From assembly GCA_963835935.1 (NCBI GenBank), contig CAWIHK010000006.1, positions 44,119 through 108,118 of the forward strand: a DNA stretch of 64,000 nucleotides, in the 5' to 3' direction. The notes under the pieces were generated by a model. The model saw only the letters and a program-made list of their open reading frames with translations. It searched no databases and was not told where the DNA came from. Positions 190-53,223 of the stretch are shown here, one piece after another (within the stretch, counting starts at the first letter, position 1; every line of letters starts with the position of its first letter). The stretch comes from Ignavibacteriota bacterium (GTDB lineage Bacteria > Bacteroidota > Ignavibacteria > UBA10030 > CAVZMI01). A program made the position numbers and the translations under genes.

Positions 190-717
190 ATGAAATACAT
201 ATTAAATGCAACAAGATATATTGCTATCGCTGCCACGATACTGTTTCTCATCTCCTGTCAATCGAGCCGCTACGGGTACAAAACTGAAAAAGATGCGGAT
301 GAAATAATTTTTATCGGGACTGTCGGGAGAGATTTATTTACAAAACCGGAAACTTTGTGGTTCGATGAGGCGTACGATTCTTACATAGCAGATATCGGTG
401 CGCTTCAACCATTACGCGGCTGGAACGATTCTTTGGATGTCATAATTTTCTTAGGAACATGGTGCAGTGACACGCATCGAGAACTTCCGAGGTTTTTAAA
501 AATCGTCGAATCGACACATCCTCCAATCCGGATCGTCGAATTCCATGCGCTCGATCGTAATAAAAAAAGCGATTCAGATTTACCGGAAAAATATAATATC
601 ACCAATGTGCCGACGTTTGTGTTCTTGAAAAACGGCAAAGAGATCGGCCGAATTGTTGAGAAGCCGCAAAATAGTCTCGAAGAAGATATTGTCGAAATTT
701 TTCAAAAGAGTAAGTGA
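190..717 (+). CDS. Thioredoxin-fold lipoprotein (TlpA/ResA-like, monothiol WCSDT motif)
   Basis: ORF 136..717; preferred start at 190 (MKYILNATRYIAIAATILFLISCQ = signal peptide + lipobox); 'LGTWCSDTHRELPRF' thioredoxin-like active-site region. Confidence 0.5.
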   Translation: MKYILNATRYIAIAATILFLISCQSSRYGYKTEKDADEIIFIGTVGRDLFTKPETLWFDEAYDSYIADIGALQPLRGWNDSLDVIIFLGTWCSDTHRELPRFLKIVESTHPPIRIVEFHALDRNKKSDSDLPEKYNITNVPTFVFLKNGKEIGRIVEKPQNSLEEDIVEIFQKSK

Positions 718-920
718 TTAAATAGTTTGTGTTTAAAAACCTTTGTGACCTTCATAAATTGCCACTTCACTTTGTGATCTTTGTGGTTAACCACAAAGAA
801 CTCAAAGATTAAATGGCTTTTTCTGAAGAACACAAAGAAGAATTATTTTTGCTCATAATTTGATTGACTTTTTCAGTGAGAACTAATTCAACTCCTACGT
901 ACTTTTCCTTTATTATTAAC

Positions 921-1343
921 TCAATAGGGCTTTGCTCCTTCATCGATCCAGGTTTTAATTGCCTTGATTTTATTTGAGGACAAAGCCGAATAGCCGGAGT
1001 TGATTGGAGGCATTGGGACTTGACCATGACCCTGGCCTGAAATGCAGAGATAGAGTAAGCTTGCGCCACTCTTTCCGGGGATGACGATGCCGGGGGATTT
1101 TGTCACATCGAAATACGAGTCAAGTATAAGCGGTGGATTGCCTGCTTGGTCGAGAGAATTGTGACAACCCGAATACATGCAATACGAATCGAATATTGGC
1201 TGGATATATTTTCCGTATGTCACGTTCGAATCGGGGAATGTGTCGTTCGTGTTTGCGGTTGGATTGTTTTTGCAGCAGCAGAGTAAAAAAGCAAAAGAAA
1301 GTACCGGAACAATTGTCAAGCATGTGTGAAGAGTAGATTTCAT
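921..1343 (-). CDS. Small lipoprotein with PSCyt1-like (planctomycete cytochrome c-type) domain, variant CX4CH motif
   Basis: Lipobox LLCCCKNN; 'IQPIFDSYCMYSGCH…GNPPLILDSY…IPGKSGASLLYLCISGQGHGQVPMPP…IKAIKTWIDEGAKP' matches PSCyt1 layout; 4-nt overlap with upstream gene. Confidence 0.4.
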   Translation of the reverse strand: MKSTLHTCLTIVPVLSFAFLLCCCKNNPTANTNDTFPDSNVTYGKYIQPIFDSYCMYSGCHNSLDQAGNPPLILDSYFDVTKSPGIVIPGKSGASLLYLCISGQGHGQVPMPPINSGYSALSSNKIKAIKTWIDEGAKPY

Positions 1344-13300: not shown

Positions 13301-13487
13301 GATACATTCCTTACATTGATTAGAATCTTTATACTCTTCGTATCCTTTGGGTTAATTACATGACCTTCATCACCATAGAAATCAGAAACTGAAAACATGG
13401 TAATGGATCACACCATATTCAGCATGTACTTGATTTTATGTAACTCACGTTACGTAAAGGAGAAATTCCTCCGGAAGTTCTGAAGGA

Positions 13488-13956
13488 ATGCCTTCGGCAG
13501 AGCCCCTTTGGGATAAATGACAATCCCACGAATCCCAAATCCCGCTGTATGGGATCCCGTCACATTAAAAAATATTATTGTGACGGGACAAATCCAATAT
13601 TAATTCAAAATCTATTAATTATACGGACAAAGACGTGCGTTTTCCAACATGACATTTGTCATTATGGACGGACATTTGTCATCAAGCATTTCTGACTGAT
13701 GTTACGCAAAGAGCCATTTCCTGTAATGGTCACTTCTGCCGAAGGCATGGCTTCGCCAGATACGATCCCGACTTCCGTCGGGATCACACCTCACCATGTT
13801 CGGTGCATCGCTCAGTGACCATGCTAATTTGCTGTGACACCGAGCATAGCCGAAGTGTCGGTTACCGAGTGATCCGCCAGTCTCTTTGGCGAATTCTATC
13901 GAGGTAACCCATAAACGCGAAAGTTCATGATTATTATCATTCTGCGTAACATCAGT
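13488..13956. repeat. Intergenic region with two nested 14-bp perfect inverted-repeat pairs and GC hairpins (MITE-like / structured element)
   Basis: atgccttcggcaga (13488) vs tctgccgaaggcat (13736); actgatgttacgca (13695) vs tgcgtaacatcagt (13942); hairpin gatcccgacttccgtcgggatc (~13773). Confidence 0.45.
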
Positions 13957-14038
13957 TACTAAATATTTTTATTCTAGTGGTGTGAAATCTGATAGGAAAA
14001 GATCAAGTTAGTGTAGATGAGAATTTTCTGATGTTTGA

Positions 14039-51257: not shown

Positions 51258-52052
51258 CTATTCAGCCATTTCATTTCTTATATCTTCTAGTAATTCCTGT
51301 AAGAAATTAGATCGATCAAATTTCAACCCTTTTTCAACTATTGCACGAGCTTCTACCAATCTGCCTTGCCTATAGAGGAAGCGTCCTAGGTGGTCGTAGA
51401 AAGCAAAAAATTCCGGATTTGATTGGAGATTATCTCTTAATAAAGCCTCTACCCGGGAATATTTTTTCTCCAGTTCAAAAACTAGCGAAAGATATCTTTT
51501 TGCCCACCACTCTTCCCATTTCGATTTTGGCGAGGACAAAGCTTGCAGGAGGTGATACTCGGCGCTATTATAATTCGAGAGTGAGAAGTATGCCAGACCG
51601 AATGCCATGTGAATTGTATTGTCATTTTTTTCGGAAGCTGTAAGAATGGAATTTAGCCAATCAATGGTGTGTGTTGCATGCCCGAGAATAATTGCCGTAA
51701 GTGATCTATCGAATATCAAATAGAGTTTAGAGTGCTCATCCCATGTTCCCATATCTAATAGTTCGTCTGCCTGCAGAACATTCATCTTTTTATAAGCGCG
51801 GGGGGAGAAAAACCAACCTGCGATAAAACCACTCATCCTCTCCGCCTGTGCGAGGCAGAGAATCTTCCAATTTTTCTCTTCTTCGCTTAAAGAATCAAGA
51901 TTCCGATCTTTCAGAACACTCACGATTCTTGATGAATCGAAGGGATCTTCCATTAAATAGAAATATATATCCTTGTAATTAATCCCCTGGCCTTTTGCGG
52001 TGATAAATGCGGAGCAAGCTATCATTAGGATTAATAGGATTTTCTTAATCAT
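51258..52052 (-). CDS. Secreted TPR-like repeat protein (ORF-track 5' extension to 52226 rejected)
   Basis: Internal Met 'MIKKILLILMIACSAFITAKGQ' gives a signal peptide; helical repeat composition. Confidence 0.45.
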   Translation of the reverse strand: MIKKILLILMIACSAFITAKGQGINYKDIYFYLMEDPFDSSRIVSVLKDRNLDSLSEEEKNWKILCLAQAERMSGFIAGWFFSPRAYKKMNVLQADELLDMGTWDEHSKLYLIFDRSLTAIILGHATHTIDWLNSILTASEKNDNTIHMAFGLAYFSLSNYNSAEYHLLQALSSPKSKWEEWWAKRYLSLVFELEKKYSRVEALLRDNLQSNPEFFAFYDHLGRFLYRQGRLVEARAIVEKGLKFDRSNFLQELLEDIRNEMAE

Positions 52053-52176
52053 TGATCTTACCTCCAAAATAAACCGGATACGTGCAGTAATATTACAGAA
52101 TAGAAGGAAAAGTGTCAACCGGGCATTCAAGACGAAGTTTCGTTCTGAAGTCTTTTTAAAACAGGACGCAGTTTGG

Positions 52177-52335
52177 CGGAGAGCGTAGGATTCGAACACT
52201 AAAGTGCCATCGTGCAAAAATCGCACGAAGGCCTACAAGTCCCGACTTCGTCGGGACACCGGTTTACCTGCCGAAGGCAGGTCCTTCAGGGCAAGACCGG
52301 TGCAATAATTTTTTCCCTACGCTATGTGCGAGCAC
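52177..52335 (-). other. Degenerate tRNA-Ser-derived sequence: anticodon arm to 3' end of tRNA-Ser with three GC hairpin insertions, lacking a matching 5' acceptor strand
   Basis: 22/22 nt identity to the tRNA-Ser 3' end (gcggagagcgtaggattcgaac) and to 'attgcaccggtcttg'; inserts 'ccctgaaggacctgccttcggcaggt', 'tcccgacgaagtcgggac', 'ccttcgtgcgatttttgcacgatggcactttagtg'. Confidence 0.5.
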
Positions 52336-52337
52336 AT

Positions 52338-52374
52338 GAAATAAAAAGAGCCAACTATAAAAATGGTTGGCTCT
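52338..52374 (-). terminator. Rho-independent terminator downstream of tRNA-Ser
   Basis: agagccaac…gttggctct 9-bp stem, T-run on minus strand. Confidence 0.6.
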
Positions 52375-52378
52375 TGAG

Positions 52379-52461
52379 CGGAGAGCGTAGGATTCGAACC
52401 TACAAGCCCTTGCGGGCGCCGGTTTTCAAGACCGGTGCAATAGCCGTTCTGCCAGCTCTCC
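52379..52461 (-). tRNA. tRNA-Ser (anticodon UGA), type II with long variable arm
   Basis: rc: GGAGAGC…CCGGTCTTGAAAACCGG…CGCCCGCAAGGGC…GGTTCGAATCC…GCTCTCCG; anticodon loop cTTGAaa. Confidence 0.8.
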
Positions 52462-52761
52462 GATATCACACGCGCAATAGTTGAGTCCCGACGTTTTATG
52501 TCGGGACGAAATCCCGCTCATAGTCTTTTTTTAAATAGCAGGCGGGACCGTTCTGCCAGCTCTCCCAAAAAATAGAGACTCTTATCCGGGAATCTCACCT
52601 AAAAGCAGTACAAATATACGAACACAAGGCTAATAATGCAAGGTTGCGAAAATCGAAAATTAATACGTGAAGTAAAATATATCTATCTTCCCGATTTAAA
52701 AAGTTTTTCCTTGATCCTCACAGGTTTTATTTTCCGAACTCTCTCCGGCCACTATAGAAAA

Positions 52762-53223
52762 TTAAATACCCAACACATACCAGCCGCTTTTCTGTAAGTC
52801 GGCCAGCATCTTTCCAGTGTACATCACGGTAACTCCCAGATTTGTTAACTTATCGGACACTCCGTATAAGTCTGCACAGGCTTTGCATGCGTATAATTCC
52901 ACTCCGACGTTCTTGAGTTCCTTCAGACGTCCCTGCAACAGAGTGTCCTCCGCTAATAACTTTGATGACGGACCCCAGACGAGAAGCCTTACATTATCCA
53001 TCCAAGCGTTCTTCTTACAGTTGAATGCATACATGAATACCATCTTGAGGGCTACTTCACGGTCACCGTTTGTCCAGACTATCAGTTGTTGGTTCTTCGG
53101 TGAAATTGCAGTACTTGTCGAATCCTTCGGCGTTGACGGGCCGGATCCCTTCGAAGTTTGAGCAGTGAGTATCCCGCAAAACATTAGGATGCTGCAAATT
53201 ATTAACGTCGTTTTTTTTCTCAT
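52762..53223 (-). CDS. DsrE/DsrF-like family protein with signal peptide
   Basis: Size and 'LYACKACADLYG' region compatible with DsrE-like fold; weak. Confidence 0.4.
   Translation of the reverse strand: MRKKTTLIICSILMFCGILTAQTSKGSGPSTPKDSTSTAISPKNQQLIVWTNGDREVALKMVFMYAFNCKKNAWMDNVRLLVWGPSSKLLAEDTLLQGRLKELKNVGVELYACKACADLYGVSDKLTNLGVTVMYTGKMLADLQKSGWYVLGI

Follow-up and report, generated by a model that had tools for sequence, protein, structure and literature searches.

Distal repeats of the tyrT operon of Escherichia coli are 178-bp units, each of which contains the last ~19 nt of tRNA-Tyr, and they are the source of rtT RNA and of the tpr open reading frame (ORF). These repeats may be viewed as the closest architectural analogue of the locus described here, a tRNA-Ser(UGA) gene flanked by partial copies of itself in a 64,000-nt stretch of an Ignavibacteriota genome; "the window" refers to this whole stretch. 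Both rttR and tpr are mentioned for the tyrT operon (bioRxiv 10.1101/2024.07.17.603846). Partial tRNA copies, attL and attR, are also left by integrative elements (Reiter 1989 and Williams 2002, as cited in PMC9897764). In phage T4 the GIY-YIG homing endonuclease SegB is encoded within a tRNA gene cluster (PMC2330249; PMC13096335), and archaea possess multi-intron, split and permuted tRNA genes (PMC3218864). In our literature searches we found no account of GIY-YIG genes beside tRNA genes of bacteria and none of small GIY-YIG proteins of the YhbQ type, and neither tRNA-abutting minimal GIY-YIG cassettes nor hairpin-expanded pseudo-tRNA leaders were described in what these searches recovered.

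In the window, a 5′ partial copy, the intact tRNA-Ser gene, a terminator and a 5′-truncated copy (psi-3′) follow one another on the minus strand, which carries all features of the locus (Table 1; coordinates are window positions). We found that the upstream copy belongs to a conserved module family with covarying stems and is not a random or isolated scar, that hairpin-bearing downstream pseudo-copies recur across relatives, and that in these relatives both GIY-YIG cassettes and integrase islands land at tRNA-Ser(UGA). Our preferred interpretation, to which we assign a probability of roughly 0.5, is that the copies arose as pseudo-tRNA by-products of a tRNA-Ser hot spot common to the lineage. 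The upstream one would be a structured leader transcribed together with the tRNA, the downstream one a relic that is probably silent.

Table 1. Features of the tRNA-Ser(UGA) locus in the order in which they are read on the minus strand
Feature	Position	Strand	Detail or basis
Promoter-like TAnnTTTG box	52611..52618	-	TATATTTG within CCTTGTGTTCGTATATTTGTAC; resemblance to the box of relatives
Leader hairpin and T-run, just 5′ of the 5′ fragment	52575..52596	-	terminator-like site in consensus scan
U1 module, 93 nt	52473..52565	-	covariance model R1, 70.3 bits, E 2e-15
U1: copy of tRNA nt 1-18	52565..52548	-	
U1: hairpin 1 (hp1), followed by TTTC	52547..52512	-	
U1: hairpin 2 (hp2)	52507..52485	-	
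U1: TCAACTATTGCG	52484..52473	-	
tRNA-Ser(UGA), intact	52378..52461	-	ARAGORN; Rfam tRNA, 56.6 bits at 52379..52461
Intrinsic terminator after tRNA-Ser	52339..52375	-	13-nt arms 92% complementary, then T-run CTCTTTTTATTT
Small hairpin and 8-mer	52316..52337	-	ATGTGC-TC-GCACAT at 52337..52324, then AGCGTAGG at 52323..52316
psi-3′, 5′-truncated pseudo-tRNA-Ser, tRNA nt 20-84	52176..52307	-	exact repeats, alignment to tRNA
psi-3′: anticodon-loop insert, 26 nt	52291..52266	-	between tRNA nt 35 and 36
psi-3′: enlarged variable arm	52257..52239	-	GTCCCGAC-GAA-GTCGGGAC
psi-3′: insert, 35 nt	52231..52197	-	between T-stem 5′ strand and T loop (before or in the T loop)

Partial copies on both sides of an intact tRNA-Ser(UGA) gene

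A preliminary description of the locus had reported an intact tRNA-Ser followed by a terminator, and both were found again by ARAGORN, by the Rfam tRNA model and as a hairpin with a T-run. The gene does not encode CCA and is near-identical to the tRNA-Ser(UGA) of ~20 Ignavibacteriota-type metagenome loci. The same description had placed a copy of the first ~19 nt of the tRNA upstream, at 52547..52565. The exact copy is real; its length is 18 nt (18/18 matches to tRNA nt 1-18, GGAGAGCTGGCAGAACGG) and it is part of a 93-nt module. On the downstream side, the reported 22/22 match to the tRNA 3′ end, GTTCGAATCCTACGCTCTCCGC, was confirmed as an exact repeat (52197..52176 and 52399..52378), and a second exact copy, TATTGCACCGGTCTTG, matches tRNA nt 20-35 at 16/16 positions (52307..52292). 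Further collinear blocks of psi-3′ match the tRNA at 10/12 and 10/11 positions, and the retained blocks are identical to it at 52/53 positions. Within-window BLAST gave E-values of 2e-6, 4e-4 and 7e-3 for the tRNA copies. Because of these values and the collinear order of the blocks the copies are not due to chance, and their derivation from the tRNA, as originally proposed, holds.

An assembly artefact or chance similarity is hardly credible as the source of this arrangement. The sequence does come from a metagenome-assembled genome (MAG), and tRNA repeats break assemblies, as in locus L001 of the relatives described below, which ends inside the tRNA. However, the 5′ fragment, the spacer and the tRNA start, together the upstream half of the arrangement, are also present in an independently made assembly (Logan ERR10755942, 99.95% identical). 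Moreover, at 16-22 nt the repeats fall below the k-mer length usual in assembly, and the same architecture is found in many independent metagenomes.

The upstream copy is a conserved module with covarying stems

Relatives of the locus were found via the tRNA itself. A metagenome scan for the 22-mer of the tRNA 3′ end returned 95 loci, among which were ~20 distinct Ignavibacteriota-type tRNA-Ser(UGA) loci, and one more locus (L185) was added from an NCBI MAG. These loci contain homologues of the upstream module, which we call U1. U1 corresponds to tRNA nt 1-26, that is, the acceptor 5′ strand and the D arm, with the D loop expanded by two hairpins, and its layout across the family is GGAGAGCTGGCAGAACGG, hairpin 1, TTTC, hairpin 2 and TCAACTATTGC(A/G). 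The window copy has this layout (tRNA nt 1-18, two hairpins and TCAACTATTGC), its stems are present, and it lies between the promoter-like box and tRNA-Ser(UGA). Folding with RNAfold gave a D stem that closes a two-hairpin junction and left the acceptor 5′ strand free. The 8-bp stem of hp2, GTCCCGAC/GTCGGGAC, is identical to that of the enlarged variable arm of psi-3′.

Homologues of U1 were found in at least seven further lineages, among them L099 (two copies), L111/L131/L177 (3-4 tandem copies), L120, L126, L127 and L142, so that the copy number per locus is 1-4, in tandem with a 90-nt period. In a covariance-model search of the window and related loci (218 kb), full-length U1 was found only directly upstream of this tRNA. 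Covariation was counted on true U1 copies only, with reverse-strand palindrome matches and plain D arms left out. Among 11 distinct copies, 97% of the cells in the stems were paired and 10/22 pairs changed on both sides, compared with 3.5 ± 1.4 in shuffles; when the partner column was slid, at most 3 pairs showed a two-sided change. From these data we conclude that the U1 stems are maintained by selection. The suggestion that the locus encodes a tRNA-derived structured RNA thus fits the upstream element, with its conserved, covarying stems. A second type of 5′ copy, U2, consists of nt 1-26, a short GC hairpin in place of the anticodon arm and a decaying variable arm.

The promoter-like box upstream of U1 in the window resembles a conserved CTTGTnTTC..CTTTTGTACC box of L142, L158, L160, L172 and L185. 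In L158, L160 and L172 this box is directly 5′ of the tRNA, whereas in L142 it is directly 5′ of U1 and in L185 directly 5′ of U2. U elements therefore lie within the transcription unit and begin at the point at which the tRNA would otherwise begin. On its sequence the TAnnTTTG box is a candidate promoter, an assignment for which we take the motif to correspond to the promoter consensus of the FCB group. The terminator-like hairpin and T-run between the box and U1 could be an attenuator in the tRNA leader.

The downstream copy is a pseudo-tRNA with three hairpin insertions

Only 70 nt, terminator included, separate the tRNA from psi-3′. Inserts in the anticodon loop, the variable arm and the T arm had been described previously, and all three could be mapped (Table 1). 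As had also been stated, psi-3′ is without a 5′ acceptor strand, since no GGAGAGC precedes it. It was not called a tRNA by ARAGORN, nor by the Rfam tRNA model at E <= 10, and an Rfam search of 51900..52900 at the same threshold gave only the tRNA and sub-threshold noise, with no rtT and no intron family. The fold of psi-3′ has a z-score of -5.5. Ahead of it, the 8-mer AGCGTAGG is complementary to CCTACGCT in psi-3′ (T-stem 3′ strand and start of the acceptor 3′ strand), and the minimum free energy (MFE) fold pairs GCGUAGGG with UCCUACGC, which closes psi-3′ into a multi-helix junction (z = -5.7). No counterpart of the 8-mer was seen by eye in L114, L120 and L136. A CCA at 52173..52175 (minus strand) directly follows psi-3′ (CTCTCCG-CCA-AAC) and is also found after 1/3 L114 copies, probably by chance.

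Since the 5′ fragment (nt 1-18) and psi-3′ (nt 20-84) would together span a whole tRNA, they could in principle be one split or intron-containing gene, with its D loop interrupted by ~240 nt that include the intact tRNA and with small introns elsewhere. Short inserts at several cloverleaf positions and separately encoded 5′ and 3′ parts recall the archaeal genes of this kind. Such a gene is nevertheless very improbable. The genome is bacterial, as indicated by T9SS sorting-domain proteins encoded near the locus and by malQ, which is closest to Ignavibacteriota MAGs (75% identity); both point to Ignavibacteriota. A group I intron in a bacterial tRNA gene is about 200 nt or more in length and has a group I core; the 26- and 35-nt inserts are far too short, and there was no Rfam intron match. 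Furthermore, an intact tRNA is present, the terminator would lie inside the putative gene, and the two pieces overlap: U1 runs on after nt 1-18 with CTATTGCG (nt 19-26), and both pieces contain CTATTGCA. The window pieces also have no complementary leader and trailer sequences, and in relatives the presence of a U copy is independent of that of a psi copy. No bulge-helix-bulge motif of the archaeal type was seen, though no systematic search aimed at it was made.

GIY-YIG cassettes, ORF-less copies and integrase islands follow the same tRNA in relatives

The preliminary description had suspected mobile DNA, and the loci of relatives bear this out. In type A loci (L111/L131/L177, L127, L134/L163, L142, L172 and L185), the tRNA 3′ end is followed at a distance of 2-4 nt by the GTG start codon of a GIY-YIG ORF. 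In L112, GIY-YIG ORFs flank tRNA-Ser(UGA) on either side (287..957, minus strand), and L186 has tandem cassettes on a contig without the tRNA, in which the enlarged variable arm is present as well. The product is a GIY-YIG domain protein of ~90-100 aa (Pfam E 2e-12 and 2e-15; ORFs at 907..1209 in L134, 1388..1651 in L127 and 3001..3276 in L185), and a protein search with the ORF gave 6 proteins only. Because there is no room for a ribosome-binding site between the tRNA 3′ end and the GTG, and because the Pfam domain starts at residue 4, the arrangement suggests that the ORF is translated from a leaderless mRNA made by tRNA 3′ processing. Where a distal copy is present, this 5′-truncated pseudo-tRNA encodes the last codons and the stop codon of the ORF (TAG in CTTGTAGG). 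Such cassette-linked copies start at about nt 10-20, have a short hairpin in place of the anticodon arm and then match the tRNA to its 3′ end; the L111 cassette is without a distal copy. Tandem units measure 329 nt in L142 and ~358 nt in L134. The three 329-nt units of L142 (1431 nt) differ by single-base homopolymer indels, which suggests either long-read errors or frameshifted pseudogenes.

These cassettes raise the possibility that tRNA-Ser(UGA) is the homing site of a minimal mobile cassette, with U1 and psi-3′ as selected structured components and the window as an ORF-less derivative. Such a cassette would consist of a GIY-YIG gene for a protein of ~95 aa, which would be read off the tRNA transcript and whose start codon would abut the tRNA 3′ end; the tRNA and pseudo-tRNA would bound it as portable homology arms. 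After a break in the tRNA gene, the left end would invade the donor tRNA and the right end the donor pseudo-tRNA. This model would account for four features of the cassettes: their start at the tRNA end, their end in a pseudo-tRNA, their independence of flanking synteny and their tandem arrays. The hairpin modules could confer immunity to cleavage, act in RNA processing or form a two-piece tRNA-like RNA. A caveat of the model is that the intact tRNA would itself stay a target. Among GIY-YIG genes that act on a tRNA region, SegB comes closest as a precedent, and it is a possible model for the cassettes: it too is a free-standing GIY-YIG gene beside tRNA genes and is tied to gene conversion or amplification of such a region. 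SegB, however, is a phage protein with DNA-binding domains, whereas the cassette proteins are chromosomal, consist of the catalytic domain only (~95 aa) and are known from sequence, and tblastn with three cassette proteins found no GIY-YIG gene anywhere in the 64-kb window. We regard homing as a tentative alternative, possible and somewhat unlikely.

The likeness to the tyrT distal repeats is architectural only. Tandem units after the tRNA end in a partial 3′ copy, as seen in L142 (329-nt units) and L114 (131-nt units), and a small ORF can lie inside. In contrast to tyrT, the product of the ORF in relatives is a GIY-YIG nuclease, the copies extend back as far as the D loop and have hairpins in their loops, upstream 5′ copies exist as well, and the window copy lies behind a terminator. 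There is no relation in sequence or to the rtT family of Rfam.

In type B loci, the downstream copies are without an ORF and carry hairpin inserts: L114 (three copies, 131-nt period), L120 and L136/L153 (two copies). The insertion site in the three copies of L114, in L120 and in L136a/b is exactly between TTC and GAAT in the T loop (66/67), and L136b has in addition a two-hairpin insert at tRNA nt 35/36, which is also the site of the anticodon-loop insert of window psi-3′. At one position in L114 and L136, the T-loop hairpin occurs with three different Watson-Crick pairs (TGTGCC/GGCACA, TGCGCC/GGCGCA and TGAGCC/GGCTCA). A UCCGCC-loop-GGCGGA hairpin recurs as a D-loop insert, as the anticodon-arm replacement and as a T-loop insert. 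The L114 copy has a fold z-score of -4.9; other copies gave -0.7 to -1.8, no better than shuffles. Window psi-3′ belongs to type B.

Cassettes do decay, as only the first ~20 nt of one are left in L099. One may ask whether psi-3′ is what remains of the distal arm of a GIY-YIG cassette that lost its ORF to a deletion and received the terminator in its place. The cassettes of relatives, L111 excepted, end in a copy that starts in the D loop; psi-3′ also begins there (nt 20), as would be required of a distal pseudo-tRNA, and GGGAAAA precedes TATTGCA in the window, in L142 and in L186. Descent from a cassette is still improbable. The window copy retains the anticodon stem with its insert, whereas cassette-linked copies have a short hairpin instead of this arm, and it resembles the ORF-less copies of L114, L120 and L136, which are likewise without ORF remnants. 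The spacer between the tRNA and psi-3′, moreover, showed no significant similarity to GIY-YIG cassettes.

Tyrosine-integrase islands with a Pfam phage integrase match directly follow the same tRNA in L126, L137, L150 and L160, which together with the GIY-YIG genes of L111, L112, L127, L134, L142, L172 and L185 shows that in relatives this tRNA is a hot spot of mobile DNA. The preliminary description had proposed, as one of two readings, that the window locus is the scar of an integrative element; in its plain form this would be attR (and attL) remaining after tyrosine-integrase integration at tRNA-Ser and imprecise loss of an island. As in att duplications, the last 22 nt of the tRNA are directly and exactly repeated beside an intact, hot-spot tRNA which islands abut in relatives, and partial copies are a known outcome of integration into tRNA genes (PMC9897764). 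This explanation fails on several counts, however, and we consider it decidedly improbable. Integration that restores the 3′ end makes no upstream 5′ partial copy, and the one present here is conserved, structured and covarying. The downstream copy spans nt 20-84, reaching back to the D loop, with three clean hairpin insertions confined to loops and essentially no substitutions. No element lies between the repeats. The window carries no nuclease gene, and tblastn with three integrases from relatives found nothing significant in it. Many copies in relatives bound a ~300-nt nuclease cassette without an integrase. Of the three features that define a plain att scar, the window locus shows one and lacks two. 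Viral contigs were scanned with four sequences, namely the 22-mer, an 18-mer core, and the junctions of U1 and of the cassette. Apart from a phage tRNA array, all matches were chance similarities in coding regions or non-tRNA sequence, and no attP-like copy was found.

Turnover at the hot spot and proposed origin of the window copies

An upstream ROK-family gene is common to L134, L142, L160 and L185, yet these loci differ in U element and cargo: U2 with two to three GIY-YIG cassettes in L134, U1 with three cassettes in L142, no U element and an integrase island in L160, and U2 with a GIY-YIG cassette in L185. Loci with the same upstream gene thus differ in both respects, which indicates a hot spot with rapid turnover, although the hairpin architecture persists. 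In L158 the ROK-gene region appears inverted and lies ~2.3-3.7 kb downstream of the tRNA-Ser, implying inversion at the hot spot. L114 and L120 have an upstream gene in common at 67% identity, and both have type-B copies.

Under our preferred interpretation, the tRNA would repeatedly recombine with tRNA-like homology arms of incoming DNA (GIY-YIG cassettes and integrase islands), and unequal crossing-over would yield additional copies. The outcome would be 3′-truncated copies upstream and 5′-truncated copies downstream. Hairpin insertions would be tolerated or retained in loops only, and gene conversion, as the simplest option, would keep the blocks of psi-3′ identical to the neighbouring tRNA. 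Given its place between promoter and tRNA, U1 is most likely transcribed within the 5′ leader and would then be removed by RNase P. Because no cargo gene is present in the window and a strong terminator lies ahead, psi-3′ is probably a silent relic; we saw no promoter-like box ahead of it on reading the window sequence, and it would be mostly untranscribed. The window instance is then probably a cargo-less member of the pattern.

Several observations weigh against this interpretation. The spacer is unlike the cassettes, which leaves cassette descent of psi-3′ unsupported. An identity of 52/53 alongside three insertions is unlike neutral decay, and gene conversion is an assumption. On the sense strand the hairpins have UUCG-type loops and G-U pairs, they are restricted to loop sites, and the T-loop hairpin covaries between L114 and L136; all this suggests selection on the RNA fold, which a silent relic would not need. 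The interpretation also offers no mechanism for the placement of hairpins in loops. Type-B copies persist in L114 and L120 despite flanks that are only 67% identical. Finally, no close relative was present in the collections searched, where the nearest flanking proteins are 70-75% identical.

Several of these points count in favour of a further explanation, namely that U1 and/or psi-3′ are functional tRNA-derived structured RNAs. They could act as a processed leader or trailer in controlling how the tRNA-Ser precursor matures or how stable it is, or be the two pieces of a tRNA-like complex, joined by pairing of GGAGAGC, which is free in U1, with the unpaired GCUCUCC of psi-3′ copies. U1 covaries and is always within the transcription unit, inserts are confined to loops with the stems retained, and the sense-strand UUCG loops and G-U pairs, the fold z-scores of window psi-3′ (-5.5) and L114 (-4.9), the three Watson-Crick pairs at one T-loop position and the shared type-B copies of L114 and L120 all point in this direction. 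Set against them are the strong terminator between the tRNA and psi-3′, the missing promoter-like box ahead of psi-3′, the shuffle-like folds of the other copies, the lack of an Rfam family match and a small sample of 11 U1 variants and ~8 type-B copies. U elements also come and go among loci with the same upstream gene, which argues against an essential role. On balance, we consider a function of this kind a real, if unlikely, possibility.

Genomic setting and other hairpin-rich sequences in the window

The neighbours of tRNA-Ser in the window are a DsrE-like gene, malQ, a TPR gene and a VIT-like gene. A scan of malQ contigs (80 loci) gave 0 loci with a tRNA near malQ and 0 with the same neighbouring genes. 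Homologues of the DsrE-like gene were <= 70% identical and in unrelated contexts, and the TPR gene had one homologue (47% identity), so that malQ, the DsrE-like gene and the TPR gene had no synteny elsewhere in the collections searched. A metagenome pattern specific to the doubly interrupted copy had no match. The other tRNA locus of the window, tRNA-Ala, is plain and without partial copies.

Although 4/21 perfect GC-rich hairpins of the window fall in 52210..52506, repeat and similarity comparison within the window showed that the hairpins of the locus form no dispersed repeat family there. The preliminary description had seen the same hairpin motifs recur at 13736..13795, but this recurrence comes down to a 12-mer (E = 1.7) and a 6+6-nt stem. 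That region is part of a ~265-nt intergenic element (13693..13958, plus strand) within a 900-nt gene-free gap. The element has a 16-bp closing helix and at least six GC-rich hairpins, with an MFE of -107.9 kcal/mol (z = -8.7 versus shuffles) and no Rfam match, and may represent either a novel structured RNA or a miniature inverted-repeat transposable element with terminal inverted repeats. A second hairpin-rich stretch (13470..13590, plus strand) includes GAATGCCTTCGGCAGAG and ends in a terminator-like hairpin, TCCCGTCAC..GTGACGGGA; its sole Rfam match was a meaningless sub-threshold microRNA.

Significance

Loci of this kind yield false or missed tRNA calls in annotation, and they cause assembly breaks (L001 and L185 end inside repeats). 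Partial tRNA copies are usually taken for passive integration scars, a view that does not cover three features found here: the upstream leader is conserved and covaries, the pseudo-copies gain hairpins solely in cloverleaf loops and at recurring positions, and the tiny nuclease cassettes of relatives appear to have the tRNA and a pseudo-tRNA for their two arms. The window instance is probably cargo-less, which tempers its own interest; the wider pattern merits attention. If the modules are functional RNAs, they would represent a new class of tRNA-derived leader or trailer. If the cassettes home into the tRNA gene, they would be a very small mobile element that can move between genomes without common gene order.

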